Origin: an uncultured virus (IMG/VR IMGVR_UViG_3300032268_000759) | Taxonomy: Duplodnaviria > Heunggongvirae > Uroviricota > Caudoviricetes | Length of the DNA stretch: 64,000 bases | IMG/VR virus record: IMGVR_UViG_3300032268_000759 | Coordinates: 90,841-154,840 of that record | Direction: 5' to 3' (one strand) | The notes under the pieces: model-generated | Database searches by the model: none | Told to the model about the DNA's origin: nothing | What the model saw: only the letters and a program-made list of their open reading frames with translations | Translations under genes and position numbers: made by a program | Shown: positions 49,023-64,000 of the stretch, one piece after another | How positions within the stretch are numbered: position 1 is the stretch's first letter | Layout of the letters: the number at the start of each line of letters is the position of its first letter

Positions 49023-49027
49023 GTTTT

Positions 49028-50473
49028 ATGAAAGAAAAATTAGGTTACATTCCTCAAAAAGACAGAAAAAAAATACTCTTAATATGTGATGATATTAGAG
49101 TCCATTCTGGAGTTGCAACAGTAGCAAGAGAATTAGTTGTACACACCGCACATCATTTTAATTGGGTTAATGTTGGTGGAGCAATCCAACATCCAGAAGC
49201 AGGTAAACGATTAGATTTATCTCAAGATACCAATATACATGCTGGTATAGATGATTCATCAATAACAATATATCCAACAAATGGATATGGTGATACAACA
49301 TTTATTCGCCAGTTATTAGATTTAGAAAAACCAGATGCTATTTTCTTAATTACAGATCCAAGATATTTTGCTTGGTTATTTAATATTGAAAATGAAATAA
49401 GAAAACACACTCCAATTGCTTATTTAAACATTTGGGATGATTTACCTGCTCCACATTATAATAAACCATATTATGAAGCATGTGATGCTTTATTAGGTAT
49501 TTCAAAACAAACAGTTAATATCAATAAATTAGTTTTAGGTGATAAAGCTAAAAATAAGATTATTAAATATGTACCTCATGGTTTGAATGAAAATATATTT
49601 AAACCATTAACTGAAGGAGATATAGATTGGAAAGAATTTACAACATTTAGAAAAAATTTCTTTAAAGGTAAAGAATTTAATTTTGTTGTATTCTTTAATT
49701 CTAGAAACATTAGACGTAAACAAATTCCTGATACTATGATGGCATTTAAACTATTTTTAGATGGTTTAACACCAGAACAAGCTAAAAAATGTGCTTTAGT
49801 ATTGCATACAGAAACTATTAGTGAACATGGAACTGATTTGTTAGCAGTTAAAGAATTACTTTTTGATGGATTTGAAGATAATATTATTTTCTCAACTGAT
49901 AAGAAAGATCCTAAACATATGAATTTTTTATATAATTTGGCAGATGCTCAAATTTTACTAACTTCAAATGAAGGATGGGGATTAGCATTAACTGAAGCAT
50001 TATTAGCAGGTAGACCAATTATAGCTAATGTAACAGGTGGTATGCAAGATCAAATGCGTTTTGAAAATAATAAAGGTGAATGGGTTGACTTTGATGCAAA
50101 TGTTCCTTCAAATCATAGAGGTACATATAAAAAGCATGGTAAATGGGCATTCCCAGTATTTCCAAGTAATATTTCAATAATGGGTTCACCTCCAACACCA
50201 TATATTTTTGATGATAGATGCAGACCAGAAGATGCTACTGAATGTATAAAAGAAATATATGATATGTCTATTAGTGAAAGAACAGAAAGAGGATTAGCAG
50301 GTAGAGAATGGGCTATTAGTGATGAAGCAGGCTTAACAAGTGAAAAAATGGCTAATAGAGCTATTGAAGCAATGGATGAATTATTTGCTACTTGGAAGCC
50401 AAGAGAAACATTTGAGTTTATCAATACCAATGAAGTTAAAAAAAGAGTTTTAAACCATAAATTAATTTACTAA
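49028..50473 (+). CDS. GT-B glycosyltransferase (GT4-like)
   Basis: SGVA, VPHG, RNIRRK, LYNLAD, EGWGLALTEA, TGGMQD. Confidence 0.85.
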   Translation: MKEKLGYIPQKDRKKILLICDDIRVHSGVATVARELVVHTAHHFNWVNVGGAIQHPEAGKRLDLSQDTNIHAGIDDSSITIYPTNGYGDTTFIRQLLDLEKPDAIFLITDPRYFAWLFNIENEIRKHTPIAYLNIWDDLPAPHYNKPYYEACDALLGISKQTVNINKLVLGDKAKNKIIKYVPHGLNENIFKPLTEGDIDWKEFTTFRKNFFKGKEFNFVVFFNSRNIRRKQIPDTMMAFKLFLDGLTPEQAKKCALVLHTETISEHGTDLLAVKELLFDGFEDNIIFSTDKKDPKHMNFLYNLADAQILLTSNEGWGLALTEALLAGRPIIANVTGGMQDQMRFENNKGEWVDFDANVPSNHRGTYKKHGKWAFPVFPSNISIMGSPPTPYIFDDRCRPEDATECIKEIYDMSISERTERGLAGREWAISDEAGLTSEKMANRAIEAMDELFATWKPRETFEFINTNEVKKRVLNHKLIY

Positions 50474-50474
50474 A

Positions 50475-51785
50475 ATGAGTAAACCGTTATTTGTAATAAG
50501 TTCGCCTTTTGATACCTACTCAGGGTATGGAGCACGCAGTCGTGATTTAATAAAAGCTATTATTGAGACTGATAAATATGATGTTAAATTATTATCTCAA
50601 CGTTGGGGTGATTGTGCCTGGAAGTTTTGTAGTGATAATCAAGAGTGGAGTTTTCTATACAATTATGTATTAAATACTCCTCAACTACCTAGACAACCTG
50701 AAATTTGGGCTCAAATTACTGTACCAAATGAATTCCAAACTATAGGTAAGTATAATATTGGTATAACAGCTGGAATAGAAACAACTATATGTTCCCCAGA
50801 GTGGATAGAAGGTGTAAATAGAATGAATTTAACTCTAGTATCATCAAATCACTCTAAACAAGTATTTGAAAACAGTAAATTTCAAAAACAAAATAAGCAA
50901 ACCAATGCAATTGAAGGTACTGTTGAGTTAAACAAACCAATTGAAGTATTATTTGAAGGAGCTAATTTAGAAACATACTTACCTCAAGAACCAGCTATTA
51001 AAGGAGCTAGTGTGTTAAGTGATACTATAACAGATATTAAAGAAGATTTTGCATATCTGTTTTTAGGACATTGGATGCAAGGTGATTTGGGTGAAGATAG
51101 AAAAAATGTTGGACTATTAGTTAAAGCATTTTATGAAACATTTAAAAATAAAGCTAAAAAACCAGCGTTAATTTTAAAAACATCAAGTGCTGTTTCATCA
51201 TATACTGATAGAGAATTAATATTAAATAAAATTCAACAAATTAAAGAAACAGTAGATTCTAAAAACTTACCAAATATTTATTTATTACATGGTGAATTTA
51301 GTGATGTTGAAATAAATGAAATTTATAACCATCCAAAAGTAAAAGCAATGGTTAGTTTAACTAAAGGTGAAGGTTTTGGTCGTCCATTACTTGAATTTAG
51401 TTTAATTAAAAAACCAATTATAGTAACTAATTGGAGTGGACATATGGATTTCTTAAATCCTGAATTTGTAGCTAGTGTTAATGGTAATCTTAAAAATGTT
51501 CATCCAAGTGCTGCTAATCAATTTTTATTAGCTGAGTCACAATGGTTTGAACCAAACTCAGGAGAAATAGGTCATAATTTAAAAGATGTATTTGAAAATT
51601 ATAAAAACTATTTAGAAGGAGCAAAACGTCAAGCATTTAGAAGTAAAAATGAATTTAGTTATGATAAAATGAAAGAATCAGTAGATTCAATTTTAACTAA
51701 ATACATTCCTGAGTTTCCAAAATCAGTTGAACTAAAACTTCCACAATTAAAAAAATTAGAATTACCTAAACTTAAAAAAATATAA
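50475..51785 (+). CDS. GT-B glycosyltransferase (GT4-like)
   Basis: SGYG, EDRKN, GEGFGRPLLE, TNWSGHMDF. Confidence 0.8.
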   Translation: MSKPLFVISSPFDTYSGYGARSRDLIKAIIETDKYDVKLLSQRWGDCAWKFCSDNQEWSFLYNYVLNTPQLPRQPEIWAQITVPNEFQTIGKYNIGITAGIETTICSPEWIEGVNRMNLTLVSSNHSKQVFENSKFQKQNKQTNAIEGTVELNKPIEVLFEGANLETYLPQEPAIKGASVLSDTITDIKEDFAYLFLGHWMQGDLGEDRKNVGLLVKAFYETFKNKAKKPALILKTSSAVSSYTDRELILNKIQQIKETVDSKNLPNIYLLHGEFSDVEINEIYNHPKVKAMVSLTKGEGFGRPLLEFSLIKKPIIVTNWSGHMDFLNPEFVASVNGNLKNVHPSAANQFLLAESQWFEPNSGEIGHNLKDVFENYKNYLEGAKRQAFRSKNEFSYDKMKESVDSILTKYIPEFPKSVELKLPQLKKLELPKLKKI

Positions 51786-51789
51786 CTAA

Positions 51790-52236
51790 ATGGACGCTTT
51801 AGTAGAATGTACACGTTGTGAAGGAGATGCTTGCTACATGCAAGAAATATCTCCTGAAGTAAAAATATATCATTGTTATGGATGTGGTTTCACATCTAAC
51901 ACAGCAATGAAAGCTGAAAGTGAGTATTTAAAAGAACAATTAGAAATACTACCTGAACTATATAAGGCATTAATGGTTGAGGATGAAACAGGAAAAATCT
52001 GGATTCCATCAAGTATAAATGTACCTAGTGTAGGAATGGTATTTGCTAATGGTACAAGTACTCTTGATTGGAAATGGTCAGCTGTAAAAGCTACACCAGT
52101 ACTTGAAACTGAAAAAGAAAAGTATAAACTTAAAAATGGTAAACATGCTGAATTTAAAATGGATATGACTACCATAACTCATTTTGATGAGAAAGATTAT
52201 ATGGATGGTTTAGAGTACCTTGGCTTATTATTATAA
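51790..52236 (+). CDS. zinc-ribbon hypothetical protein
   Basis: CTRC and CYGCG pairs. Confidence 0.65.
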   Translation: MDALVECTRCEGDACYMQEISPEVKIYHCYGCGFTSNTAMKAESEYLKEQLEILPELYKALMVEDETGKIWIPSSINVPSVGMVFANGTSTLDWKWSAVKATPVLETEKEKYKLKNGKHAEFKMDMTTITHFDEKDYMDGLEYLGLLL

Positions 52237-52250
52237 GAATATTATATTAA
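52219..52250 (+). promoter_or_regulatory. Bacteroidetes-like promoter CTTG-N20-TATATTAA
   Basis: Fixed-spacing motif at the head of the sugar operon. Confidence 0.6.
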
Positions 52251-52254
52251 CAAT

Positions 52255-52398
52255 ATGACAACAAATGAGTTTTTAAAATGGTTACAAGGTTATTTAGATG
52301 GTATTGATGCAGCAGCTGGTTCAACAGCTAAAACAGAAACCATTAAAGAAAAACTAAAACAAATCTCTGAGTCTACTCAGAATGTAATAAAGGGTTAA
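52255..52398 (+). CDS. 47-aa small protein not in the ORF track
   Basis: MTTNEFLKWLQGYLDGIDAAAGSTAKTETIKEKLKQISESTQNVIKG*; directly after the promoter, stop 1 nt before the next ATG. Confidence 0.65.
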   Translation: MTTNEFLKWLQGYLDGIDAAAGSTAKTETIKEKLKQISESTQNVIKG

Positions 52399-52399
52399 T

Positions 52400-53032
52400 A
52401 TGAAAATAAGTTATGGTATCACAGTTTGTGATGAAAGTAAAGAATTATTTAATCTATTAAGTTATTTATATGATAAGATAGATGAAGGTGATGAAGTTAT
52501 TGTATTAAGAGATATGGGTAAAACTAATCATGATGTGACTAAAACTATAGTTCACTTTCATGAAAAGTTTAAATATCATCTTAAGTCTGCAGATGCTAAT
52601 TTGAATGGTGATTTTGCTACATTTAAAAATTACCTACCAACAATTGCTACAGGCGATTACTTATTCCAAATTGATGCAGATGAGATACCAAATGAATTTT
52701 TAATTGAAAACATTAAACCAATACTTAAAATTAACTCAGATATAGATTGCTTCTATATACCTCGAGTTAATAAAGTAGATGGTTTGACTCCACAACATAT
52801 AGAAAAATGGGGATGGAGAGTTGATGACCAAGAGCGCATCAACTTTCCTGATCCTCAGATGAGATTATTTAAATTAAATCAAGATATTAAGTGGAAAAAT
52901 AAAGTTCATGAAGTATTAGATGGTTATAAAACCATATCAACATTACCTTATGATACAGAGGATTTTTGTTTATATCATATCAAATCAATAACAAAACAAG
53001 AACAACAAAATAATTTTTATGAAACAATATGA
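52400..53032 (+). CDS. GT-A glycosyltransferase (GT2-like)
   Basis: ISYGITVCDE, FATFKN, FQIDADE, PD.Q.R, VHE. Confidence 0.85.
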   Translation: MKISYGITVCDESKELFNLLSYLYDKIDEGDEVIVLRDMGKTNHDVTKTIVHFHEKFKYHLKSADANLNGDFATFKNYLPTIATGDYLFQIDADEIPNEFLIENIKPILKINSDIDCFYIPRVNKVDGLTPQHIEKWGWRVDDQERINFPDPQMRLFKLNQDIKWKNKVHEVLDGYKTISTLPYDTEDFCLYHIKSITKQEQQNNFYETI

Positions 53033-53553
53033 TTAAGTTACATTTAGGTTGCGGAACAAAACATTTAGAAGGATATACTAATATTGATATAAGATATCTT
53101 CCTGGTGTTGATGAAGTAAATAATATTCGATTTTTAAGAAACTATAAAGAAAATTCAGTTGATGAAATTTATGCTTGTCATGTCTTAGAACATTTTGGAA
53201 GATGGGAGTATAAAGAAGTACTTAAGAGATGGTTTGAGATTTTAAAACCAGGAGGAAAATTACGTTTAGCTATACCTAATTTTTCATCTATATGTGCATA
53301 TTATAATAAAACAGGTAATCTAAATTCATTAATGGGGTTACTTTATGGAGGTCAAGATTATGATGAGAATTATCATTATGTTACTTTTGACTATCATACT
53401 TTATCTAATGATCTAAGACATATAGGATACACTTCAATTTCAGAATGGAACTCAGAAGATTACCCAGGAGATGATTTTAGTAAATCATATTTACCTCATA
53501 TGGATAAAGAAAATGGAATACTAATGAGTTTAAATATTTTAGCTATAAAATGA
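53029..53553 (+). CDS. SAM-dependent methyltransferase
   Basis: LHLGCG, NID, HVLEH, LKPGG. Confidence 0.85.
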   Translation: MIKLHLGCGTKHLEGYTNIDIRYLPGVDEVNNIRFLRNYKENSVDEIYACHVLEHFGRWEYKEVLKRWFEILKPGGKLRLAIPNFSSICAYYNKTGNLNSLMGLLYGGQDYDENYHYVTFDYHTLSNDLRHIGYTSISEWNSEDYPGDDFSKSYLPHMDKENGILMSLNILAIK

Positions 53554-54353
53554 AAGTAAAAGCAATTCATTTTGATATAGAACAATATTTACATTCTTGT
53601 AAAGATATTGATTTTTCATTATTCTTAGAAACTATTCCTGAAACTCAAGACGAATTATCTTCTATTAATATAATTTCTATTCATGAACCAAATGAATATT
53701 TTGGTAAACATGATTGGATTATTAAAAATAAACATTTATTTAATATTATATTAACTTGGAATGATAAGATATTAAATACATGTGAAAATGCTATTTATTT
53801 ACCATTTGGTCATACTTGGTTTAAACCTGATCAATATGAAAAAAATCATAAGAAAGAATTTAAGGTAGCTCATTTAAGAGGAAATTTACTTAAATCATAT
53901 GGGCATCAAATTCGTTGGGAAATTTTAGATAGAAAAGATGAAATTAAAATACCAACTAAGTTTTTTGATACCTATGGTGATAGACATAATATTGAAAAAG
54001 CTAGAATAGATAAAGAAGAAGTTTTTGGAGATTCAATGTTTGGAGTAGCTATAGAAAACTTTTCACATAGAGGATTTTTTACAGAAAAAATAATTGATTG
54101 TTTTTTACTTAAAACTATTCCTATATATTGGGGATGCTCTAATATAGGTGATTTTTTTAATGAGGAAGGTATAATAAAATTTGGAGACCCAGATGAATTT
54201 ATTTATATTAATAACAACTTAAATGAAAGTTATTATCATTCTAGAAAAGATATAATTGAAGAAAATTATCAAAAAGCACTTCAATATGTCAATTATGAAC
54301 AAAATATAGTAAATAAAATAACAGAAATATTTAAATTAAATAACATAATATGA
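53550..54353 (+). CDS. GT10 (alpha-1,3-fucosyltransferase-like) glycosyltransferase
   Basis: FGVAIEN..FFTEKIIDCF..TIPIYWG. Confidence 0.75.
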   Translation: MKVKAIHFDIEQYLHSCKDIDFSLFLETIPETQDELSSINIISIHEPNEYFGKHDWIIKNKHLFNIILTWNDKILNTCENAIYLPFGHTWFKPDQYEKNHKKEFKVAHLRGNLLKSYGHQIRWEILDRKDEIKIPTKFFDTYGDRHNIEKARIDKEEVFGDSMFGVAIENFSHRGFFTEKIIDCFLLKTIPIYWGCSNIGDFFNEEGIIKFGDPDEFIYINNNLNESYYHSRKDIIEENYQKALQYVNYEQNIVNKITEIFKLNNII

Positions 54354-55492
54354 AAAAAATATGGTATGCACCGTACAAATTTGAATCCTATGGAGAAGAA
54401 GAAATTAAAGCGGTGGAAAATTGTTTAAGACAAGGATGGTTAGGAGGAAATGGTCCTCGCACTACAGAATTTGAAGAGAAAATAGCAAAACATTTTGGAA
54501 AAAAATATGGAGTATTTGTAAATTCAGGTTCTTCAGCCTGTCTATTAGCACTAGCATGTCTACAACTACCAAAAGGAACTAAAATTCTTACTCCAGCATG
54601 TACATTTTCAACAACTCTAGCTCCTATTATTCAACTAGGATTGACTCCAGTATTTGTAGATGTTGATTTAAATACTTATGTTGTTAATGTAAAAGAAGTA
54701 TTAGCGGCTATTACAGATGATGTGAAGGTTCTTATGATTCCTAATTTAATAGGAAATAAACCAGATTGGAAAGCAATTAAAGATGGTTTAGCAGCTATAG
54801 GTAGAGAAGATATTATATTAATTGAAGATTCAGCAGATACAGTAACATATACTTCAGAAACAGATATTGCTACAACTAGTTTTTATGCTAGTCATGTTAT
54901 TACTGCTGGTGGTACTGGTGGTATGATAATGTTTAATGATAAATCTTTACTAGATAAAACATTACAGTTTAGAGATTGGGGAAGAATTGGTGGTGATTCT
55001 GAGGCTATGGAAGATCGTTTTAATTATAAAGTAGATGGTATTCCTTATGATTATAAATTTTTATATGGTGTTTTAGGTTATAATTTTAAATCATCTGAAA
55101 TGAATGCTGCGTTTGGATTAGTTCAATTAGAACGTTTTAAGATATTTGAAGGTATAAGAAGGGCTAATATTGAAAGATATATTGATAATCTTAAAGAAAT
55201 AGAAGATATTATAATACCTGATGATAGTATTAAACCAAATTGGTTAGCAATTCCTCTTCAAACAGAAAAACGTTTAGAATTATTAAATTTCTTAGAAGAT
55301 AATAATATCCAAACCAGAGTAACTTTTGCAGGTAATGTGACACGTCATCCTATTTATAGAGAATATTTACAAGAATTTAAAAATTCAGATACAATTATGA
55401 AAAATGGATTTTTATTAGGTGCTCATCATGGAATGACAATTGAAGATGTAGATTATGTGTGTGATAAAATTAAAGAATTTTTTAATAAATAA
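54350..55492 (+). CDS. DegT-fold PLP/PMP enzyme, His-type (RfbH/DdhC/ColD-like NDP-sugar 3-dehydratase)
   Basis: VNSGSSA, IEDSAD, SFYASHVIT with His where aminotransferases have Lys, RDWGR, GYNFK. Confidence 0.8.
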   Translation: MKKIWYAPYKFESYGEEEIKAVENCLRQGWLGGNGPRTTEFEEKIAKHFGKKYGVFVNSGSSACLLALACLQLPKGTKILTPACTFSTTLAPIIQLGLTPVFVDVDLNTYVVNVKEVLAAITDDVKVLMIPNLIGNKPDWKAIKDGLAAIGREDIILIEDSADTVTYTSETDIATTSFYASHVITAGGTGGMIMFNDKSLLDKTLQFRDWGRIGGDSEAMEDRFNYKVDGIPYDYKFLYGVLGYNFKSSEMNAAFGLVQLERFKIFEGIRRANIERYIDNLKEIEDIIIPDDSIKPNWLAIPLQTEKRLELLNFLEDNNIQTRVTFAGNVTRHPIYREYLQEFKNSDTIMKNGFLLGAHHGMTIEDVDYVCDKIKEFFNK

Positions 55493-55495
55493 AAT

Positions 55496-56293
55496 ATGAA
55501 TACAAGAGAATTTAAATGTGTTTCCATCCTTAATGATTTAGTTGAAAATCATGGATTAATAGGAATAAAAACTAGTTTTGAAGATGAAGGAGCTACTTTT
55601 AATGAAGTTCTTAGATTAAAAGAAATTTGTAATCAAGCAAAAACTAAATTAACTCTAAAAATTGGAGGCCCAGAAGCATCTAGAGATATTCAAGACTCAT
55701 CAATTATAGGAGTTAAAGGTTTAGTAGCGCCTATGGTTGAATCAGGATTTGGCTTAACTAAATTTATTAATTGTGCCCATACTAATTTATCCTTAGATAT
55801 AATTAAATCATTAGAATTAATTATTAATATTGAAACTATTCAATCTTATAAAAATATTGATGAAATATTGAATGTAAAAGAAAGTAAAGATTTATACGCT
55901 GTTACTGTGGGAAGAGTTGATTTTGTTTCTTCAATGGGTAAAGATCGAAAATATGTTAACTCTCCTGAAATGTTAAAAATAACAAAAGATATTTTTACAA
56001 AAGCAAAACATAAAGGATTAACTGTTAATTTAGGAGGAGCTATTACTACTGATTCTTATGAATTTTTAACAGAACTTTATAAAGATGGTCTTTTAGATAA
56101 ATTTGAAACACGATATGCTATTTATGATCCTTCTAAAGCATTAAAAAATCTAAATAAAGCTTTAGCAAAAGGACAAATGTTTGAATATGAATGGTTAATT
56201 AATAAAAAAGAAACATATCAACACCAAGCAGATAAAGAAAATAAACGTATTCAGATGATTCAAGATAGAATCAATCAACCTACAGATATATAA
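55496..56293 (+). CDS. HpcH/HpaI aldolase / citrate-lyase-family protein
   Basis: KIGGPEA, APMVES, INIET, VGRVDF. Confidence 0.75.
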   Translation: MNTREFKCVSILNDLVENHGLIGIKTSFEDEGATFNEVLRLKEICNQAKTKLTLKIGGPEASRDIQDSSIIGVKGLVAPMVESGFGLTKFINCAHTNLSLDIIKSLELIINIETIQSYKNIDEILNVKESKDLYAVTVGRVDFVSSMGKDRKYVNSPEMLKITKDIFTKAKHKGLTVNLGGAITTDSYEFLTELYKDGLLDKFETRYAIYDPSKALKNLNKALAKGQMFEYEWLINKKETYQHQADKENKRIQMIQDRINQPTDI

Positions 56294-56955
56294 TGATTAT
56301 ATTATTAACTGGGGGTTCAAGAGGGATTGGTAAAGGTATAAAAGAATTTTTTGAAAAACAAAGTCACACTGTACTTTCACCTTCAAAAAAAGAAATGGAC
56401 TTATCAAATTTAGAACATGTTAAGTCTTATTTAACAACAATAAAAAATGTAGACATCATTATAAACAACGCTGGAGTAAATTATTTAAATAATATAAAGG
56501 ATGAAACCACTGAAAGTTTAAATAAGACTTTAAATATTAATTATTTATCTCCTTTTATAATTTGTCAACATTTTTTACCTTTACTAAAAAACAAAAAATA
56601 CGGACGAATTATTAATATAGGAAGCATATGGATTGATTACGCTAAACCTCTTAGAGGAGGATATAGTGCTAGTAAAAATGCTCTCCATAGTTTAACTAAA
56701 ACTATAGTAAGTGAATACTCAGAACATAATATATTATGTAATACTATATCTCCAGGTTATATTTTAACAGACTTAACTCTTCAAAATAATACTAAAGAAG
56801 ATTTAGAAATTATAAAAAATCAAATCCCATTAAAAAGACTAGGTGACGTTAATGAAATAGCGAAATTAGTTTATTTTTTAACAATTGAAAACACTTATAT
56901 AAATGGACAAAATATTATCATTGATGGAGGATACTCTTGCACCTCTAAAAGTTAA
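56293..56955 (+). CDS. short-chain dehydrogenase/reductase
   Basis: TGGSRGIG, NNAG, YSASK, SPG, DGG. Confidence 0.9.
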   Translation: MIILLTGGSRGIGKGIKEFFEKQSHTVLSPSKKEMDLSNLEHVKSYLTTIKNVDIIINNAGVNYLNNIKDETTESLNKTLNINYLSPFIICQHFLPLLKNKKYGRIINIGSIWIDYAKPLRGGYSASKNALHSLTKTIVSEYSEHNILCNTISPGYILTDLTLQNNTKEDLEIIKNQIPLKRLGDVNEIAKLVYFLTIENTYINGQNIIIDGGYSCTSKS

Positions 56956-57952
56956 ATCTAATTTAAATGATTATAAAATAACTTTTCATGATACTGTAGA
57001 AGGATTATTAAATATTTTAGATAAACAAAGTTGGTTTATTATAGATAAAAATCTAAAACAATATTATGATTTTGATTTTTTACCTAATAAGATATTTTAT
57101 GAATGTAATGAAAATACAAAATCTTTTGATCATATTGAAATACTATTAAAAACTTTTACTCAAAATCAATTTAAATCTAACACAGAAGTTATTATTATTG
57201 GAGGAGGTACTTTACAAGATGTAGCTGGTTTTTGTTGTAGTATATATAGTAGAGGTATTAAATATAAATTTATACCTACTACACTGTTATCTCAGTGTGA
57301 TAGTTGTGTTGGAGGAAAAACATCTATAAATTTTAATTCTATAAAAAATATTTTAGGTACATTTTATCCTCCAACAGAAATTTTAATCTGTGATAAATTT
57401 TTACAAACTCTAAGTGAAAAAGATTTTAAAAGTGGTTTAGGAGAAGTATTTAAATTTAAGATATTGCAAAATAAATTAAATGAGGATATTTTTTCTAAAG
57501 ACAACTTAAATCAATTAATTAGAGAATGTTTAGAATATAAAATATCAATAATTGAAATTGATGAGTTTGATCAAGGTTTAAGAAAATTATTAAATTATGG
57601 ACATACATTTGGTCATGCTTTAGAAATTACATCTAACTATAAACTTCCTCATGGATCAGCTGTAATATTAGGTATTTTAATTGTAAATGATATACTTAAA
57701 GAATTAAATGTAGAAACAAATTTAGATTATAATGTTATTAATAAAATAGGTTTATCCTTAATTAAACATATTGATTTAGATAAAGAATGGTTTAATATCA
57801 AAGACATCATAAAAACAATTAAATTAGATAAGAAAAATACAGGTAAAATAAATTTGGTCTATCCAGATAAAAATTTTATATTTAAAATAATAACTTTAGA
57901 AGAAAATGAGACTATCAGATTATGTAATACAGTTTTTAAGAGATTCATATAA
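56903..57952 (+). CDS. 3-dehydroquinate synthase-like sugar-phosphate cyclase
   Basis: GGGTLQD, PTTLLSQCDSCVGGKT, KN..G, GE..K, LNYGHTFGHALE, HG.AV; start may be 56924. Confidence 0.85.
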   Translation: MDKILSLMEDTLAPLKVKSNLNDYKITFHDTVEGLLNILDKQSWFIIDKNLKQYYDFDFLPNKIFYECNENTKSFDHIEILLKTFTQNQFKSNTEVIIIGGGTLQDVAGFCCSIYSRGIKYKFIPTTLLSQCDSCVGGKTSINFNSIKNILGTFYPPTEILICDKFLQTLSEKDFKSGLGEVFKFKILQNKLNEDIFSKDNLNQLIRECLEYKISIIEIDEFDQGLRKLLNYGHTFGHALEITSNYKLPHGSAVILGILIVNDILKELNVETNLDYNVINKIGLSLIKHIDLDKEWFNIKDIIKTIKLDKKNTGKINLVYPDKNFIFKIITLEENETIRLCNTVFKRFI

Positions 57953-59636
57953 AGTAGATACTTTCTTCACTTTATCAGGTGGAGGTTGTATTTTTTTAAT
58001 GGATACATTAGGAAACACTGAAAATATAAAATATGTGGCTAACCACCATGAACAGGCTTCAGCTATAGCAGCTGAAGGTTATGCTAGAATGCATGGTAAA
58101 ATAGGTTGCTGTATTGTAACTAGTGGACCTGGAGGAACTAATACCTTAACAGGAGTATTATGTAGTTGGTTAGATTCTATTCCTATGATTGTTATTAGTG
58201 GTCAAGTAAATAAAGAAATGACTACTAATTATACAAATCTTCCATTAAGACAATTAGGAGATCAAGAATTCAACATAATAGACTCAGTGAAAAATATGAC
58301 TAAATATGCTGTTCAAGTAAATGATCCTAAAACTATTAGATACCATTTAGAAAAAGCATGTTTTGAAGCTACAAATGGAAGACCAGGTCCTGTATGGTTA
58401 GATTTACCTTTAAATGTTCAGTCTTTTGATATTAATCCTGAAGAATTAGAGTCATTTACTCCTGAAGATAACTTACCTAAACCAACTAATGAAGAAATTA
58501 ATCATATAATAGATAAACTTAACAATTCAAAAAAACCACTACTTATTGTTGGAAATGGAGTTAGATTAAGTAATGGAATAAATGAATTAAAAGAATTTTT
58601 AAATAAAACTAATATTCCTGTTATCACTGCGGTAAATGGAAATGATATAGTAAATGAAAATTATATAAATTACGCTGGAAGATTTGGAACTCATGCTCAG
58701 ATATGTGCTAATAATTTATTAGATGAATGTGATTTTCTTTTGACTATAGGTTCAAGATTATATGTTAGACAAACAGGTTATAATTTTAAATCTTTTGCTC
58801 AAAATGCTTATAGAATATATACAGATATAGATTTAAATGAATTAAATAAACCATCATTATTTCCTGATTATAAAGTAAATACAGATGCTAAAATTTTATT
58901 GAGTGAGTTAAATAAACAATCTATAAATCAAGTATCTCAAAGTTGGCAAAACCATGTTCAAGATAAATTTAAAAATAATATTACTGTATTAGATAAACAT
59001 AGAGATAAAATTAATACTGTTAGTAATTATCATTTTATTGAAAAATTAAATAATCACTTAACAGAAAAAGATCATGTTATCACTAGTGATGGATCAGCTA
59101 ATGTAGTTACTATGCAAGTCTTAAAATTAAAAGGAAACCAAAGACTAATTACAAATACTGGATGCGCACCTATGGGATATGGACTCCCAGCAGCTATTGG
59201 AGCGAGTAGTAATAATACTAGAGTAATTTGTTTAGAAGGTGATGGTAGTTTACATTTAAATATTCATGAGCTTCAAACTATGAAGCATAATAATTTACCT
59301 ATTAAATTAATTATTTTAAATAATAATGGTTATTTATCTATTAAATTAACTCAAAAGTTTTTATTTAAAGGTAAATATGTAGCTTCTGAAGAAAGTAGTG
59401 GAGTAACATTCCCAGATTTTAAAAAAATATCTAAAGCATATGATTTACCTTATTTTAGTATTAAAAATCATGATGATATAGATTTAGTATTAGAAAAATT
59501 TCTTAAAAATGATAAACCATCTATATTAGAAGTTTTTACAGATGAAAATGAATCTCATGAACCTAGAGTAATACCTGTTTTAGATGAAAATAGAAATTTT
59601 ATACCTGGAAAATTAAGTAATATACAATGGATTTAA
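57906..59636 (+). CDS. ThDP-dependent enzyme, acetolactate-synthase family (YerE-like)
   Basis: HHEQAS..AAEGYAR, TSGPG.TN, GRPGPVWLDLP, MGYGLPAAIGA, GDGS...NNNGY. Confidence 0.88.
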   Translation: MRLSDYVIQFLRDSYKVDTFFTLSGGGCIFLMDTLGNTENIKYVANHHEQASAIAAEGYARMHGKIGCCIVTSGPGGTNTLTGVLCSWLDSIPMIVISGQVNKEMTTNYTNLPLRQLGDQEFNIIDSVKNMTKYAVQVNDPKTIRYHLEKACFEATNGRPGPVWLDLPLNVQSFDINPEELESFTPEDNLPKPTNEEINHIIDKLNNSKKPLLIVGNGVRLSNGINELKEFLNKTNIPVITAVNGNDIVNENYINYAGRFGTHAQICANNLLDECDFLLTIGSRLYVRQTGYNFKSFAQNAYRIYTDIDLNELNKPSLFPDYKVNTDAKILLSELNKQSINQVSQSWQNHVQDKFKNNITVLDKHRDKINTVSNYHFIEKLNNHLTEKDHVITSDGSANVVTMQVLKLKGNQRLITNTGCAPMGYGLPAAIGASSNNTRVICLEGDGSLHLNIHELQTMKHNNLPIKLIILNNNGYLSIKLTQKFLFKGKYVASEESSGVTFPDFKKISKAYDLPYFSIKNHDDIDLVLEKFLKNDKPSILEVFTDENESHEPRVIPVLDENRNFIPGKLSNIQWI

Positions 59637-60412
59637 AAATTTTAATCACAGGTGGAAATGGTTATATAGCTAAAGGTCTTTATAATGGATTAAAGGATAA
59701 ATATGATATAACTTTAATTACAAGAAAGGATCTTGATTTAACAGACGGAGAAGCTACCACTCAGTGGTTTAAAAATAAGTTTTATGATGTAGTCATTCAT
59801 TGTGCTGTTACAGGAGGTAGTAGATTAAAAGCTGATACTTTTAAGGACATGGATGGAAATTTATGTATGTATTATAACTTACTACAATGTCAACTCCATT
59901 ATGATAAATTTATTCATTTTGGATCAGGTGCTGAATTATCACAAAAAGATACTCCATATGGTTTAAGTAAACATGTTATACGGCAATCTATATTAGAGAA
60001 GAATAAATTTTATAATATAAGAATATTTGCTATATTTGATGAAAATGAGTGGGAAACTAGATTTATTAAAACATGTATTAAAAAATACATTAATAAAGAA
60101 CCAATGTTATTACAAAATAAAAAAATGTCTTTCTTTTATATGAAAGATTTAATTACACTAGTAGATCATCATATTCTAACATATCCATATTCTTTAATAA
60201 AAGAAAGTAGTTGTGCCTATGTTAATTCAACTTCATTATTAGATATAGCTAATTTTATAAATGAATTAGATAATTATAAAGTTCGAATTTATGTAGATAC
60301 ACAAATAAGTGAGGATTATGAATCAAACTATAATGCTCCATATGGATTAAAATATATTGGATTAAAACAAGGAATTGTAGAAACATATAATAAAATAAAA
60401 AATGAATATTAA
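59627..60412 (+). CDS. NAD-dependent epimerase/reductase (extended SDR)
   Basis: ILITGGNGYIA, IHCA, YGLSK. Confidence 0.8.
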   Translation: MDLKILITGGNGYIAKGLYNGLKDKYDITLITRKDLDLTDGEATTQWFKNKFYDVVIHCAVTGGSRLKADTFKDMDGNLCMYYNLLQCQLHYDKFIHFGSGAELSQKDTPYGLSKHVIRQSILEKNKFYNIRIFAIFDENEWETRFIKTCIKKYINKEPMLLQNKKMSFFYMKDLITLVDHHILTYPYSLIKESSCAYVNSTSLLDIANFINELDNYKVRIYVDTQISEDYESNYNAPYGLKYIGLKQGIVETYNKIKNEY

Positions 60413-61349
60413 AATATTAGTTCATATAATGCCATGGGATATAGATTACGCGTTACTTGCTTTTGACAAGTTAAAACAATCTTCTTATTTCATAAATAGT
60501 GATGATAAAATTTATATTGATTCTTTTTTAAATTTATCTCATAGTATTATTGATTGGAATAATTCTTCTTTTCCTAAAGAATATTTTATTAAAAAATATC
60601 AAGTACTTGATGACTTAATAAAAGATGTTTTTACTCATAAATCTTTTATATATGATAAAGAAGGTATTTATGGTCATTTAGATTCTCAAAAAGAAATTAT
60701 TGAATCTCATATTGACTATTATATTGGACTATGCCCTGATGTGAATTTTCAAGAACATTTATTATACTATTTAATTGAATCAGCTAAACAAATAAAAAGT
60801 GAATATTTTGTGTTGACTCCACAAATATTTAAAAGTTGGGACTCAAGTTGGGATACATTAGTAAATCAGAAATTTCAACATGTACCTTATGAAAAATGTA
60901 TAGATACTGACATACATGAAATAAGACATGCCTGTTCAGATTTAGGTGAACCTACTTTAAAATCAATTAGTCATTTTAAATTTGCTGGTTGGTTTGACTT
61001 ATGGAGTAAAAATTTTTATGAAAAATTAGTTCCAGTATTAGATGAATGGAAAGGATATGGACCTTGGGATCTATATGCTATGAATGTATGTGATATAGCC
61101 AAATCTTTAAATGTGGATGTTAAACAATATGTTTTAGAAAATCAAGTTATATGGTTTCAAGATACAGGATGCTGGAAAAATGAAAATGAGTATGGTGGTG
61201 ATGGTAAATTAAGATTAGTTTATAAAGATTTTCTAAAACTAAAACTTGGAAGACAAGAACAAAGATCATATATTGATACAAATTTAAATTCTTATTTACA
61301 TCAGTGGGTAGAATACGCTAACAATAATGGCATCACAAAATCAAAATAG
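60402..61349 (+). CDS. putative GT-A glycosyltransferase
   Basis: LCPDV (DxD-like), KFAGWF, KGYGPWD; sugar operon context. Confidence 0.5.
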   Translation: MNIKILVHIMPWDIDYALLAFDKLKQSSYFINSDDKIYIDSFLNLSHSIIDWNNSSFPKEYFIKKYQVLDDLIKDVFTHKSFIYDKEGIYGHLDSQKEIIESHIDYYIGLCPDVNFQEHLLYYLIESAKQIKSEYFVLTPQIFKSWDSSWDTLVNQKFQHVPYEKCIDTDIHEIRHACSDLGEPTLKSISHFKFAGWFDLWSKNFYEKLVPVLDEWKGYGPWDLYAMNVCDIAKSLNVDVKQYVLENQVIWFQDTGCWKNENEYGGDGKLRLVYKDFLKLKLGRQEQRSYIDTNLNSYLHQWVEYANNNGITKSK

Positions 61350-61896
61350 AATCAGAAGTGTAGGTAAACATACTTACGGACATCATAATATTGAAATATA
61401 TTATTGGGGTGAAGGTACTTGGCTTGATATAGGTAGTTTTTGTTCTATATCAGGTCACATTAATGTATATTTAGGAGGTAATCACAGAACAGATTGGGCT
61501 ACTACATTTCCATTTGGTCATATCCATCAAAATGTATTTAATAATTTTAGTGGAGAAGGACATCCTCAAACTAAAGGTGATGTTAAAATAGGAAATGATG
61601 TTTGGGTAGGAACAAGTGTAGTGATTATGAGTGGTGTTACAATTGGAGATGGAGCTGTATTAGCTAATAATTCTGTTATAACTAAAGATGTTGAACCATA
61701 TACTATTATTGGAGGTAATCCATCTAAAGTAATTAAAAAACGATTTGATGAAGAAACAATAGCTCAATTATTAGAATTAAAATGGTGGGAATTAGATGAT
61801 TCTTATATTAATGAAATGTCTCCATACCTTTGCAATTCTAATTTTAAAGAATACATCTCAGACTTAATTAAAGCAAAACAAGAAATAAACAAATAA
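61327..61896 (+). CDS. hexapeptide-repeat O-acetyltransferase (CatB/Vat-like fold)
   Basis: IGSFCSI, GGNH, IGNDVWVG, IGDGAV, GGNP.K.IKKRF, LKWW. Confidence 0.85.
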   Translation: MASQNQNRIRSVGKHTYGHHNIEIYYWGEGTWLDIGSFCSISGHINVYLGGNHRTDWATTFPFGHIHQNVFNNFSGEGHPQTKGDVKIGNDVWVGTSVVIMSGVTIGDGAVLANNSVITKDVEPYTIIGGNPSKVIKKRFDEETIAQLLELKWWELDDSYINEMSPYLCNSNFKEYISDLIKAKQEINK

Positions 61897-61897
61897 T

Positions 61898-62479
61898 ATG
61901 TACGATTTAGAAAAAATAGTAAATCAAATTTATCAAACTCCATCAGATATTAATGAACATATTCCTACATTAATTGAATATGCTTCTGAATGTGATACAA
62001 TAACTGAAATGGGAGTTAGAGGAATTACCTCAACATGGGCATTCTTAGGAGCTGCTCCTAAAAGATTAATTAGTTATGATATGGAAGATCCATCTCATTA
62101 TGGTTCAAATATTCAAACAGTATATGATGTTGCTAAACAATATGGTTTAAACTTTTCATTCACTAAAGCAGATGTACTTAAAATAGATATTGAAGAAACA
62201 GATTTATTGTTTTTAGATACATGGCACGCTTATGATCAATTAAAAGCTGAATTAGAACGACATTCTTCTAAAGCTAAAAAATATATTATAATGCATGATA
62301 CTACTTCTTATGAACAAAGAGATGAACCATTAACTTCAGAAAATACATTTGAAGGAGAAAAATCATCAGGTAAAGGTTTATGGCCAGCAATTACTGAATT
62401 TTTAGAAGTAAATAATGAATGGCAATTACATAAGCGTTATACTAATAATAACGGATTAACTATTTTAAAACGTATCTAA
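61898..62479 (+). CDS. class I SAM-dependent methyltransferase
   Basis: EMGVR..ST, DLLFLDTWH, MHDT, NNNGL. Confidence 0.75.
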   Translation: MYDLEKIVNQIYQTPSDINEHIPTLIEYASECDTITEMGVRGITSTWAFLGAAPKRLISYDMEDPSHYGSNIQTVYDVAKQYGLNFSFTKADVLKIDIEETDLLFLDTWHAYDQLKAELERHSSKAKKYIIMHDTTSYEQRDEPLTSENTFEGEKSSGKGLWPAITEFLEVNNEWQLHKRYTNNNGLTILKRI

Positions 62480-63174
62480 TGAAAATAAAAGTATTTGTAC
62501 GACACTGTAATTTTTCCTCTAACTCAGTAGGAAAAAATAAACCAGATTGGTTTTCAAGAGAAAAATGCTGGGATAGTCTAAAGTCAACTTCAGATGAAAA
62601 TACAGAAATAAATGTTATGTTTGATGGTGAACCTAATAAAGAACATTTCTTATATGACCCATCAGAAGGATATAACTTAATTTGTAAATATGGAGGAAAT
62701 GATGGTAAGTCATTTTTGAATCTATTAGAGTATGTTTATGAGCAAGATATAGATGATGATACAATTCTATATTTTTTAGAAGATGATTATATCCACAGAT
62801 CAGGGTGGACAAATATTTTAAGAGAAGGATTTGAATATATTGGAGTAGATTATATTACACTTTATGATCATAAAGATAAATATTTTTTACCTATGTATGA
62901 TGATCTTCAAAGTAAAATTATAGCAACACCTTCAATTCATTGGAGGACAGTTCCATCTACTACTAACACATATGCTATGTTAGCCAAAACCTTTAAAAAA
63001 CACTATAGTATTCATAGAGAATATTGTGATTTAGAAAAAGGATATACTCGAGATCATGATAAGTTTCTTAGATTATGGAATGAAGGATCTCATTTAGTAT
63101 CATGTATCCCAGGTTATTCAACACATTGTGAAGTAGAATATTTATCACCTTGTGTAGATTGGAGTAAAATATGA
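62479..63174 (+). CDS. GT-A glycosyltransferase
   Basis: GNDGKSF, YFLEDDYIH, STT.TY, PGYSTH. Confidence 0.65.
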   Translation: MKIKVFVRHCNFSSNSVGKNKPDWFSREKCWDSLKSTSDENTEINVMFDGEPNKEHFLYDPSEGYNLICKYGGNDGKSFLNLLEYVYEQDIDDDTILYFLEDDYIHRSGWTNILREGFEYIGVDYITLYDHKDKYFLPMYDDLQSKIIATPSIHWRTVPSTTNTYAMLAKTFKKHYSIHREYCDLEKGYTRDHDKFLRLWNEGSHLVSCIPGYSTHCEVEYLSPCVDWSKI

Positions 63175-63923
63175 TTAGTGTAATAATACCAACATATAAA
63201 AGTCCTGAAGTATTAGACTTATGTCTTCAGTCAGCAATTGAAGGACAAGAAAAGAAAAATCAAATAATTGTTGTAGTTGATGGTTATTATGATATTAATA
63301 AAGAGGTGTTGGAGAAGCATTCAAAATCAATTGATATACTTAATTTAGAGGAGAATGTAGGACTATGTCGAGGAACAAATTTTGGTGTGTATAACGCCAA
63401 GTATGACCCGATTCTCATTGTTAATGATGACAATGTATTCCCACTTGGTTGGGATACAAAGTTATTAAGTAAGTTTCAAAAAGGTTGGGTATTTGCTCCA
63501 AATCAAATTGAACCAAACCCAAGTATGTTTCCTCAATTTAATATTAAAAACTTGGGACGTACAGTTGAGGAGTTTGATTTAAAAACATTTCAAGAATATG
63601 AACAAACATTATCTGTTGATAAAACAGAATTTAATGGTTCAACACTCCCAATATTCATGTCTAAAGATGATTATTTAATTGTTAATGGTTGGGATGAAAA
63701 CTACAGTCAAGGAATGGTAGCAGATTGGGACTTTTTCTTAAAATGTAATAAAGCAGGATTTCAAATGGTAAGAACATATAATACACATTTTTACCATTTT
63801 GCTTCAATATCAGTTAATGGAGAAAAAAGGCAACAAGCAGAACAAGAAGCACATATGTGGGCTATGTATAAGTGGGGAAAACCAATTCAACATAACCCAA
63901 AAAACAATCTTAAATATTTATAA
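63171..63923 (+). CDS. GT2 glycosyltransferase
   Basis: ISVIIPTY, VVVDG, N.G, VNDD, GWDE, DWDF, YHF. Confidence 0.88.
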   Translation: MISVIIPTYKSPEVLDLCLQSAIEGQEKKNQIIVVVDGYYDINKEVLEKHSKSIDILNLEENVGLCRGTNFGVYNAKYDPILIVNDDNVFPLGWDTKLLSKFQKGWVFAPNQIEPNPSMFPQFNIKNLGRTVEEFDLKTFQEYEQTLSVDKTEFNGSTLPIFMSKDDYLIVNGWDENYSQGMVADWDFFLKCNKAGFQMVRTYNTHFYHFASISVNGEKRQQAEQEAHMWAMYKWGKPIQHNPKNNLKYL

Positions 63924-63960
63924 TAAAGTTTGGCTTTTTAAAATACTTTAATTATATTTA
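63913..63960 (+). promoter_or_regulatory. tandem late-type (63913) and Bacteroidetes-like (TTTG 63929-N20-TATATTTA 63953) promoters
   Basis: Both motifs match their consensus. Confidence 0.6.
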
Positions 63961-63964
63961 CACC

Positions 63965-64000
63965 ATGGCAAGAACTGTGAAACAATATGTACCACCAAAC
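63965..64000 (+). CDS. start of a gene truncated by the window end
   Basis: ATG GCA AGA ACT... directly after the promoter. Confidence 0.5.
   Translation, partial: MARTVKQYVPPN

Follow-up and report, generated by a model that had tools for sequence, protein, structure and literature searches.

Here we describe a glycan-building locus of a large uncultured tailed phage from freshwater (Caudoviricetes; IMG/VR virus record IMGVR_UViG_3300032268_000759) and weigh which molecule it may glycosylate. The window analysed is a stretch of 64,000 nucleotides, bases 90841-154840 (the last 64 kb) of a record of 154,840 bp, and positions refer to this window unless the genome is named. The locus begins with a conserved core block that encodes a small protein (h62), two GT4-type glycosyltransferases (GT4a and GT4b), a protein with four conserved cysteines (h148) and a small GT-A-like transferase, and continues downstream of this last gene as an island of approximately 11 kb in this phage. 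Virus-encoded glycosylation is a system of a known kind; what appears to be new is the combination, in a phage, of a core and a variable island resembling the arrangement of bacterial O-antigen loci. Our preferred reading, to which we assign a probability of about 0.45, is that the acceptor of the glycan is encoded by the phage and probably consists of virion proteins.

The window proteins were compared with those of 80 related IMG/VR loci and those encoded by Flavobacterium phage vB_FspM_immuto (genus Immutovirus; hereafter immuto), the closest cultured relative by protein, whose GT4a homologue is 58% identical. A block of genes for GroEL, the clamp loader, a nuclease, h62, GT4a, GT4b, h148 and the small GT-A was found wherever a related contig reaches. 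GT4a was present in all 80 related loci with a median identity of 67%, while GT4b was full length in 67 (median 68%) and the small GT-A in 52. Median identities of the neighbouring genes were 70% for GroEL, 50% for the clamp loader and 56% for the PD-(D/E)XK nuclease, such that the core is about as conserved as GroEL and more conserved than either of the other two.

Analysis of the region downstream of the core covered 33 islands (the one described here, 31 from IMG/VR and that of immuto), loci with less than 3 kb downstream having been left out beforehand together with L021, L042, L043, L046, L048, L057 and L060, which repeat kept loci in profile and positions. These islands hold 251 open reading frames (ORFs) that fall into 74 clusters, 37 of them singletons, and no gene order is shared by two islands. 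Twelve islands can be called complete, as their right flank (f107/f147, DksA and HNH genes) was found; no two of these have the same gene content, and their lengths run from 3.0 to at least 10.9 kb. This is the pattern that a first-pass annotation of this DNA had suggested looking for, with the GT4 pair as core and the downstream genes variable among relatives. Recurrence of the present genes in the 32 other islands varied from a single island for the HpcH-family aldolase and for the AroB-related enzyme to five for the thiamine diphosphate (ThDP)-dependent enzyme, 16 for the sugar dehydratase and 21 for the GT10-like transferase. Genes seen only in other islands include those for RmlC, a PglD-like acetyltransferase, a TylF-like O-methyltransferase and a nucleoside diphosphate (NDP)-hexose C-methyltransferase, along with an ATP-grasp enzyme, a split transketolase and an E1-type thiamine pyrophosphate (TPP) enzyme. 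The dehydratase (DegT) is 86-87% identical between phages in which GT4a is 66-70% identical, and this greater similarity of island genes than of core genes indicates that modules are exchanged among phages.

The reach of the core extends well beyond these relatives. The GT4a family comprises at least 8000 protein clusters at E <= 1e-5, and the best 120 relatives among these are 67-92% identical, none of their contigs exceeding 187 kb. Relatives of GT4a are encoded by at least 598 IMG/VR stretches, and the family extends at greater distance to Microcystis phage Mel-JY01, Rhodothermus phage RM378, an uncultured 484-kb phage and Synechococcus phage S-EIVl. The order in Mel-JY01 is clamp loader, nuclease, GT4a, GT4b, small GT-A, methyltransferase, h231 and GT2, with GT4a, GT4b, the small GT-A, h231 and the 250-aa GT2 recurring at 35-48% identity (46% for GT4b, 40% for the small GT-A, 47% for h231 and 48% for the GT2). 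For RM378 only GT4a was recognizable at the threshold used (E <= 1e-3). That phages of Bacteroidota and of Cyanobacteria both retain these transferases favours an acceptor carried along by the phage over a host-specific surface glycan. The GT4a homologue of Mel-JY01 (9010-10501 of the L088 stretch) is annotated as two coding sequences of 191 and 303 aa, which match residues 5-171 and 146-465 of the window GT4a and represent a split or frameshifted gene or a sequencing error. A search of the literature outside most subscription journals found no study of this locus and nothing useful on the genes of its sugar cassette, and within that literature the core-plus-island architecture, its abundance and the presence of a branched-sugar pathway in a phage are undescribed.

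One rival explanation is that the locus is host DNA joined to the phage through mis-assembly, as could be suspected from the bacterial homologues of its sugar cassette and from its terminal position in the record. By classification this record is 100% complete and has direct terminal repeats; its first 123 bases are the same as its last 123, and the right-flank genes (DksA and HNH) lie at genome 1036-1979, just across this terminal repeat. The left flank from GroEL to the PD-(D/E)XK nuclease and the right flank of f147, DksA and HNH enclose an island in 10 independent IMG/VR loci and in cultured immuto. Strand, packing and G+C content (given as 0.23-0.30 for this agreement and as 0.23-0.36 along the genome) match the remaining phage genome, in which 157 of the 177 ORFs of at least 100 aa are on the plus strand, and bacterial homologues of the AroB-related gene are at most ~44% identical. 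Fragments of the rare-sugar cassette were also found at 97-99% identity in sequencing runs of three studies, as short contigs none of which spans the locus; one fragment (X2) has 37 differences over 2826 bases. Lake and freshwater runs X5 and X6 hold further pieces, and a single X5 contig follows the window as far as base 53032, where the small GT-A gene ends, and is then unlike it, as fits the left edge of the island. The joints listed for these runs were set aside, their sides being short (20-41 letters, fewer than 30 in all but three) at 90% likeness. Mis-joined host DNA, which the first-pass annotation had named as fatal to its interpretation, can therefore be regarded as excluded for practical purposes.

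The genome is that of a myovirus, as judged from PHROG and Pfam matches to a tail sheath (8747-10453) and a tape measure (16754-19606) and, upstream in the genome, to a baseplate wedge protein, large terminase, portal and T4-type major head protein. No match to this record was obtained in a nucleotide-level search of the phage collection. Immuto is recorded as a myovirus of Baltic Flavobacterium with Flavobacterium sp. LMO8 as host, and the host of the window phage is probably also a Gram-negative member of the Bacteroidota. Directly before the locus are genes for ribonucleotide reductase, a family-A DNA polymerase, GroEL, the clamp loader and the PD-(D/E)XK nuclease. A phage-encoded GroES/GroEL pair lies at 43841-45776, a few genes upstream of the glycan operon; this GroEL shares 60% identity with that of immuto and has a Pfam score of 248.6 bits.

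The locus forms an unbroken, tightly packed plus-strand operon at 48834-63923 (Table 1). Between 49028 and 63923, the limits originally given, there are 18 head-to-tail ORFs of at least 47 aa, and the tight gene overlaps reported earlier are evident at 11 of the 17 junctions, with gaps of only 1-18 nt at the others. This gene run is as first drawn except for its start, because the functional unit begins with h62 at 48834. An AT-rich motif, TATA[TC][TG]TATAT, lies ~20-30 nt 5' of h62 in 38 of 48 distinct relatives and occurs five times in the phage's own genome compared to 2.4 times in mononucleotide shuffles; the copy at 48806 may be a promoter or operator, and its conservation before h62 marks the likely head of the operon. 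Other phage-type promoters claimed for the locus were mostly not substantiated: sigma-70-like sites are fewer than in shuffled sequence (113 versus 144.5 +/- 11.7), intrinsic terminators are at or below chance, and of the 34 genomic copies of the phage's own abundant motif, TTTGGC-N14-24-TATWT, not one falls within 49028-63923. In its fuller form, TTTGGC-N14-24-(G)TTATATTTA(C), this composite motif stands ~25-45 nt before start codons, mostly in genome 2606-33499 and also at window 11044, 21980, 30874, 37310 and 63929. TTTGGC often forms the 5' arm of a hairpin rich in G+C (GGCTCC...GGAGCC), and the motif resembles a terminator-plus-promoter unit of an early gene region.

Table 1. Features of the glycan-building locus, the terminal repeat and the 7-deazaguanine gene set, in window coordinates (GT, glycosyltransferase; PMP, pyridoxamine phosphate; SAM, S-adenosylmethionine; SDR, short-chain dehydrogenase/reductase)
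Feature	Position	Strand	Evidence or remark
DpdA homologue	31398-32186		35% identical to immuto DpdA
QueC	32536-33393		Pfam 124 bits
QueD	33850-34311		
Radical-SAM QueE-like ORF	34304-35122		weak
FolE	36160-36795		
Promoter- or operator-like element TATATGTATAT	48806-48816	+	operon head, upstream of h62
h62, small conserved protein, first gene of unit	48834-49022	+	80/80 related loci, median identity 68%
GT4a, GT-B-fold GT4-type glycosyltransferase	49028-50473	+	Pfam Glycos_transf_1 31.5 bits (cut-off 26.4)
GT4b, second GT4-type glycosyltransferase	50475-51785	+	Pfam Glycos_transf_1 27.6 bits (cut-off 26.4)
h148, conserved Cys4 (CxxC...CxxC) protein, Zn-ribbon, orphan fold	51790-52236	+	31-sequence alignment
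h47, small ORF, doubtful gene	52255-52398	+	full length in 1 related locus only
Small GT-A-like transferase, 210 aa; last core gene, island left edge	52400-53032	+	Glycos_transf_2 18.6 bits
SAM-dependent methyltransferase, 174 aa	53029-53553	+	Pfam Methyltransf_11 26.9 bits; 2/32 other islands
GT10-like (fucosyltransferase-type) transferase, 267 aa	53550-54353	+	Glyco_transf_10 24.6 bits (cut-off 23.9); 21/32 other islands
E1/ColD-type PMP-dependent NDP-4-keto-6-deoxyhexose 3-dehydratase	54350-55492	+	NCBIfam RfbH 265 bits
HpcH/HpaI-family aldolase	55496-56293	+	Pfam HpcH_HpaI 41.7 bits
SDR, 220 aa	56293-56955	+	Pfam adh_short_C2 126 bits
AroB-related enzyme (TIGR04425-like)	56903-57952	+	NCBIfam TIGR04425 326.7 bits, cut-off 400
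YerE/JanthE-like ThDP-dependent carboligase (sugar branching enzyme)	57906-59636	+	three TPP domains
Short RmlD/epimerase-type NAD(P) reductase, 261 aa	59627-60412	+	Epimerase 52.8 bits, RmlD_sub_bind 35.7 bits (Pfam)
h315, probable GT-A-fold transferase, lead only	60402-61349	+	atlas language-model features
Hexapeptide-repeat O-acetyltransferase (Vat/CatB-like)	61327-61896	+	Pfam Hexapep
Possible sugar O-methyltransferase, 193 aa	61898-62479	+	Pfam RMNT_CmcI 18.2 bits, below cut-off 23.2
h231, possible GT-A with conserved E-D-D motif	62479-63174	+	always paired with next gene (GT2)
GT2-family glycosyltransferase, 250 aa, island right end	63171-63923	+	Pfam Glycos_transf_2 64 bits
Direct terminal repeat, 123 bp	63878-64000	.	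first and last 123 bases of record identical

The enzymes of the locus appear to be soluble. In a Kyte-Doolittle hydropathy scan, which is a crude test for membrane proteins, no locus protein had a transmembrane window except for one buried stretch of a pyridoxal-phosphate fold, and the 217 plus-strand ORFs of the whole genome had at most four hydrophobic segments each. It is thus very unlikely, within the limits of this method, that the phage encodes a flippase, polymerase or priming transferase; no priming transferase, flippase, polymerase or exporter was apparent in the scan of these 217 ORFs, searches specific to their families not having been run. As far as such a scan reaches, soluble enzymes and an absence of export machinery are as first described, and the idea of a phage-owned glycan-building system that works without a lipid carrier is supported. 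The genome maximum of four hydrophobic segments is found in a 350-aa protein at 29818-30870, which is 41% identical to a 'hypothetical protein' of immuto.

GT4a and GT4b are GT4-type glycosyltransferases on the basis of their Pfam matches, of the E-x7-E motif in both, which we take to be the motif of this family, and of the fold of the GT4a model. The glutamates of the motif are invariant in GT4a (E315 and E323 in 32 sequences, with a mean column identity of 76%) and in GT4b (E299 and E307 in 31 sequences), and GT4b matches the glycosyltransferase family phrog_2170 across its full length. The AlphaFold2 (AF2) model of GT4a, with a predicted local distance difference test score (pLDDT) of 85.4, had chlorovirus B736L (3oy2; E 6e-14) as its best PDB match in Foldseek, followed by GT4 enzymes; among the matches listed (ranks 1-50) all have the GT-B fold, and the first ten are mostly of the GT4 type (E 6e-14 to 1e-9). 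B736L, which leads the cellular GT4 enzymes by a small margin in this structural comparison, was also the best match in a sequence search (chlorovirus NY-2A; E 9e-6), and to our knowledge its acceptor is not known. The neighbours that follow it act on inositol phosphate, malate, maltose-1-phosphate, phosphatidylinositol mannosides and sucrose phosphate. An analogy was considered with streptococcal GtfA/GtfB, a GT4 pair that glycosylates Ser-rich repeat proteins and of which GtfB is non-catalytic; it is kept as an idea only and was dropped as an assignment because neither protein is among the Foldseek or phmmer matches listed and both phage proteins keep E-x7-E.

The other core genes are less readily assigned. 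Cysteines C7, C10, C29 and C32 of h148 are conserved in 31 sequences and its AF2 model has a pLDDT of 92.8; a fold search of the PDB gave no match (best E 0.43), its sole BFVD match is an uncharacterized phage protein, and its neighbours in the language-model atlas are viral hypothetical proteins. The gene is coupled to that of GT4b, and the two frames overlap in several relatives. Searches of Pfam and PHROG gave no match for h62, which may from a reading of its residues be a ribbon-helix-helix regulator, and no family for the doubtful ORF h47. The small GT-A falls below the Glycos_transf_2 cut-off of 23.3 bits and matches phrog_13126 weakly; its homologue in immuto is annotated as GT family 2.

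About seven glycosyltransferases, two methyltransferases, an O-acetyltransferase and a sugar-synthesis cassette had been listed in the first-pass annotation, and this inventory is upheld, with the count of transferases fair if taken as five supported plus two possible. Five of the transferases have family support, h315 and h231 being leads only; the assignments of two GT4 enzymes and one GT2 (250 aa) are solid, that of the GT10-like enzyme is marginal and above its cut-off, and that of the 210-aa GT-A is below the Pfam cut-off. The 174-aa methyltransferase is likewise solid, whereas the second, of 193 aa, is a weak CmcI-type match and is 95% identical in the related locus L008. An O-acetyltransferase is indeed present and scores ~153 bits against the NCBIfam CatB and Vat families, below their cut-offs, and the sugar-synthesis cassette consists of six genes with solid family matches. 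Neither h315 nor h231 gave a match in PDB sequence searches with a single sequence or a profile, and for h315 the same holds for Pfam. In language-model features h315 scores 0.96-0.97 to viral GT2 and GT7C clusters, and its homologues are full length in 16 of the 80 related loci; h231 is present in 9 of 32 islands, and two of six relatives match Glycos_transf_2 weakly. Alignment of the two with hhalign against a profile of the 250-aa GT2 gave probabilities of 1% for h315 and 10% for h231. WD40 rows obtained for h231 were rejected, as they have no accepted stretch and resemble composition noise. The best PHROG for the 250-aa GT2 is 'GtrB-like O-antigen conversion' (E 1.5e-4).

The six-gene cassette resembles pathways for acyl-branched sugars. 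The 'DegT' protein has the E1 dehydrase (3bcx; CDP-6-deoxy-4-hexulose 3-dehydrase) as its best PDB match (E 4e-60), followed by ColD, and carries His at the column where aminotransferases have Lys (the column mutated to K in entry 3bb8); assignment as an aminotransferase was rejected on these grounds. It is without the Cys-rich insert of E1, whose cysteines bind the iron-sulfur cluster of that enzyme. The ThDP enzyme has a best PDB match to 8rph (E 1e-105; next 5e-80), ahead of acetolactate synthases, and 8rph is JanthE, a YerE-like ketone-accepting carboligase (PMC12188165). A published scheme for acyl-branched sugars joins genes for CDP-4-keto-3,6-dideoxyglucose to a YerE-like enzyme, an NAD(P)H reductase and an aldolase for the functionalized 2-oxo acid, an aldolase/citrate-lyase family member being among the aldolases named (PMC9306805). 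The phage holds dehydratase, HpcH-type aldolase, SDR, ThDP enzyme and RmlD-like reductase together in one block, and so has, of the features seen in that scheme, the E1/ColD-type dehydratase, the YerE-like carboligase and a clustered aldolase and reductase. The AroB-related protein, which has both the N- and the C-terminal Pfam DHQ_synthase domains, is left unexplained by the pathway. Its dehydroquinate synthase (DHQS)-like relatives lie directly downstream of an SDR in most of 46 bacterial loci, and the order HpcH-SDR-AroB-like-TPP of the phage recurs in several of them (L107, L112, L114, L119, L121 and L129), one of which also encodes RmlD, a nucleotidyltransferase, a 4,6-dehydratase, GtrA and GT2 and is a surface-polysaccharide locus. 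Searches of the whole phage genome found neither PF00483 (NTP_transferase) nor PF16363 (4,6-dehydratase), both of which matched in 14 of 14 reference genomes used as controls, and this absence suggests that the NDP-4-keto-6-deoxyhexose is drawn from the host.

By analogy with these pathways, synthesis would start from the host NDP-4-keto-6-deoxyhexose, from which the E1/ColD-type dehydratase without its iron-sulfur motif would remove the C-3 oxygen. The YerE/JanthE-like enzyme would then add a side chain at the C-4 ketone using a 2-oxo-acid donor presumably made by the HpcH-type aldolase, and the SDR and RmlD-like reductases would reduce the product. The predicted outcome is an acyl-branched 3,6-dideoxyhexose of the yersiniose/erwiniose/caryophyllose class, with both the identity of the sugar and the order of steps put forward on homology. 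The glycan could finally be completed by the three to four further transferases of the island (GT10-like and GT-A), the two methyltransferases and the O-acetyltransferase.

How such a glycan might be used depends on its acceptor. In our preferred reading, the core would place a conserved inner glycan on a phage-encoded acceptor, and the hypervariable island would add outer sugars and decorations specific to the strain. The likeliest acceptors would be exposed, variable and Ser/Thr-rich regions of the virion, such as a capsid insertion region, a tail-sheath insertion and YadA-like fibres, which would be glycosylated before or during assembly. The major head protein, identified through PHROGs because the structural genes of immuto are too sparsely annotated, has a poorly conserved region (residues ~121-140 and 201-280; conservation 0.31-0.49 in 81 sequences) with 21-25% Ser/Thr, and there are Ser/Thr-rich stretches in the sheath and fibres. 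A further indirect hint is that B736L, which matches GT4a best in sequence and in structure, is a protein of chloroviruses, which make the glycans of their capsids with enzymes of their own. In its fullest form, this reading would clothe immutovirus-like phages, a clade abundant in aquatic habitats, in a 'phage O-antigen'. This glycan, linked to protein, would have an inner core that is conserved and an outer part that is exchanged fast, like a serotype, and has many rare sugars that are branched, methylated or acetylated, and it would be built wholly in the cytoplasm on virion proteins; we consider this extended picture possible if doubtful.

Several observations weigh against virion proteins as the acceptor, foremost that no result obtained here identifies it. 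The locus follows the replication and nucleotide module, behind ribonucleotide reductase, DpdA, PolA, GroEL and clamp-loader genes, and begins ~29 kb past the tape-measure gene rather than beside the structural genes. Virion proteins rich in TGS and SGS were originally proposed as glycosylated; the richness is real (40 and 28 such triplets in proteins of 964 and 891 aa), but two of the Ser/Thr/Gly-rich proteins carry YadA-head fibre repeats, and because such regular repeats are typical of fibres anyway, and are not the disordered tails typical of O-glycosylation, their composition cannot count as evidence for a glycan. Solubility is no proof of a cytoplasmic protein acceptor, since O-antigen and capsule loci, too, normally have GT4 and GT2 enzymes that lack membrane helices and work on lipid-linked acceptors, and the bacterial homologues of the cassette sit in surface-polysaccharide loci. 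The structural neighbours of GT4a act on small molecules, lipids and glucans, so that its fold says nothing on the acceptor. To these may be added the AroB-related enzyme without a role in the pathway and the lack of a match to h148 in Mel-JY01 at E <= 1e-3.

Other observations were made on the fibre-like genes. The 891-aa protein (37366-40041) is 31% Ser/Thr, has fibre-like repeats and no PHROG or Pfam family, and is encoded between nucleotide genes and the DNA polymerase with a copy of the composite motif before it at 37310; in immuto the corresponding position holds just two small ORFs. The 964-aa protein with YadA repeats is followed by three paralogues of 219-244 aa (3337-3996, 3926-4660 and 4915-5622) that share GLVFYLDA...NGTLTNGPTFNT...G(G/N)(S/N)IVFDG(V/T)(D/N)D and may be alternative receptor-binding tips. 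Between fibre genes, at 5662-6378, there is a 238-aa ORF with a GIY-YIG-like start (IGYIYKI...GKIYIGQT), probably a homing endonuclease.

A rival explanation is remodelling of the host envelope, in which the enzymes, at the membrane's inner face, would act on lipid-linked intermediates of the host, such as undecaprenyl-linked O-antigen or capsule units, lipopolysaccharide (LPS) core or glycolipids. Priming transferases and exporters of the host would complete the process, and the altered surface would block superinfection or keep progeny from sticking to debris. Surface-glycan GT4 and GT2 enzymes are usually without membrane helices. Also consistent with this function are the bacterial surface-polysaccharide locus with the HpcH-SDR-DHQS-TPP cassette, the source annotations of GT4a relatives ('involved in cell wall biosynthesis'), the GtrB-like PHROG of the last GT2 and the reading in this sense that authors of cyanophage work give to similar gene sets (PMC12801897). 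Opposed to it are the recurrence of the same transferases in the Microcystis phage, whose host belongs to another phylum with another envelope, and the conservation of a core that is under strong purifying selection, matches GroEL and exceeds replication proteins, as one would not usually expect where the function is accessory exclusion. The hydropathy scan of the complete genome, again without family-specific searches, showed no flippase, GtrA, priming transferase or polymerase, the genes are on one strand, and the cultured relative is recorded as a myovirus of Baltic Flavobacterium. We consider envelope remodelling unlikely overall, if still the alternative to be taken most seriously.

The coupling of h148 to GT4b and the range of GT4a neighbours also raise the prospect of some other cytoplasmic acceptor, for instance a non-structural protein of phage or host, h148 itself in the role of carrier, a glycolipid, a small metabolite or an oligosaccharide in free form. 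In some bacteria, lipids with one or two glycosyl residues are products of tandem GT4 enzymes, and the enzymes ranked after B736L act on small molecules and phosphatidylinositol mannosides. Conservation of h148 within a restricted clade and the location of the locus among genes of early or middle type, rather than structural ones, would also be in keeping with this. However, a glycan that takes five to seven transferases, carries methyl and acetyl groups as well as rare branched sugars and differs in every relative looks more like an exposed surface structure under selection, and no transporter was apparent in the hydropathy scan of the whole genome. An acceptor of this type seems improbable to us.

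Hypermodification of DNA had been offered as the alternative to virion glycosylation when the locus was first annotated, with the glycan protecting phage DNA from restriction like the glucosyl- or arabinosyl-hydroxymethylcytosine of T-even phages. The position of the locus behind replication and nucleotide-metabolism genes and the presence of a thymidylate-synthase-family gene would fit, and phage transferases reportedly hypermodify DNA with varied glycans (Pyle et al. 2024, cited in PMC12619734). Systems that glycosylate DNA are not known to need more than a few transferases, as against the five to seven and the branched-sugar pathway here. An argument against this alternative comes from immuto, which has the same core and a comparable island: its DNA contained by liquid chromatography with ultraviolet and mass-spectrometric detection only dA, dC, dT and fdPreQ1, with dG fully replaced and no glyco-nucleoside (PMC10516641). 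The window phage has its own DpdA, QueC, QueD and FolE set, so that DNA protection is already provided; its ThyA homologue best matches canonical thymidylate synthases (E 2.5e-76) and has the PCH motif. There is no sign of a hydroxymethyl handle, although sequence alone cannot fully exclude a hydroxymethylase. Together, the nucleosides of immuto and the canonical appearance of ThyA weaken the DNA alternative to the point where we regard it as very improbable. The thymidylate synthase homologue (369 aa; genome 8147-9256) has an insertion of ~47 residues between its conserved halves. The 7-deazaguanine modification genes occupy 31398-36795, and searches of the phage found no homologue of QueF or DpdN, so the modified base is probably not the fdPreQ1 of immuto.

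If glycosylation of virion proteins is correct, the locus would be the first of its kind among phages that infect Gram-negative bacteria, and a process documented in mycobacteriophages and giant viruses would prove to be common in abundant freshwater and marine phages of Bacteroidota and their relatives. Glycan diversity would then follow the plan of bacterial O-antigens, a core that stays fixed beneath an outer part open to exchange, and the glycan type of the virion would be a heritable and exchangeable trait of the phage with a bearing on phage recognition, adsorption, survival and typing. Variation of the outer part might be driven by whatever recognizes virions, including host defences, lectins, grazers and proteases. 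Whatever the acceptor, these phages would both store and spread pathways for rare sugars (3-deoxygenation, YerE-type branching, C- and O-methylation), and two highly conserved GT4 enzymes become available for study together with a Zn-ribbon protein of orphan fold. As cultured immuto has the same architecture, the question is directly testable.

The locus can be compared with several known systems. T-even DNA glucosylation also employs soluble phage-encoded transferases expressed with replication genes; it differs in needing a hydroxymethyl-pyrimidine handle, of which there is no sign here, and the DNA of the relative immuto showed no glyco-nucleosides (PMC10516641). The 'cell wall synthesis and modification' sets of cyanomyoviruses are similar in combining many transferases and sugar epimerases in a large aquatic myovirus, and their authors propose modification of the host surface or of DNA; the sections consulted describe no conserved GT4 pair with a variable island (PMC12801897). 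Bacterial clusters for yersiniose, erwiniose, caryophyllose and gastriose share the E1-type route, an HpcH/citrate-lyase-type aldolase, a YerE-like carboligase and an NAD(P)H reductase, whereas the phage lacks the nucleotidyltransferase, the 4,6-dehydratase and the Cys-rich insert of E1 and adds the AroB-related enzyme (PMC9306805). Wzx/Wzy- or ABC-dependent O-antigen and capsule loci likewise contain sugar-synthesis genes, GT2 and GT4 enzymes and methyl- and acetyltransferases and vary between conserved flanks, in contrast to the phage in having a priming phosphoglycosyl transferase, flippase, polymerase, chain-length regulator and exporter, none of which was apparent in the hydropathy scan. 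Giant viruses (chloroviruses and Mimivirus/Megavirinae) have their own nucleotide-sugar enzymes and transferases in clusters that differ between clades, and are set apart as eukaryotic viruses of another capsid lineage. Mycobacteriophages reportedly glycosylate their virions (Freeman et al. 2023, Cell Host Microbe, as summarized in PMC12619734 and PMC12801897). Their loci are said to have one to a few transferases beside structural genes, targeting C-terminal tails of capsid and tail-tube proteins. These are similar to the present locus in using soluble phage-encoded transferases, sometimes with methyltransferases, in the cytoplasm and without a lipid carrier; in the mycobacteriophages the glycans end on virion proteins. 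The phage described here departs from them in having five to seven transferases and a rare-sugar pathway, a core with a hypervariable island, a position after the replication genes and a host that is probably a Gram-negative member of the Bacteroidota.

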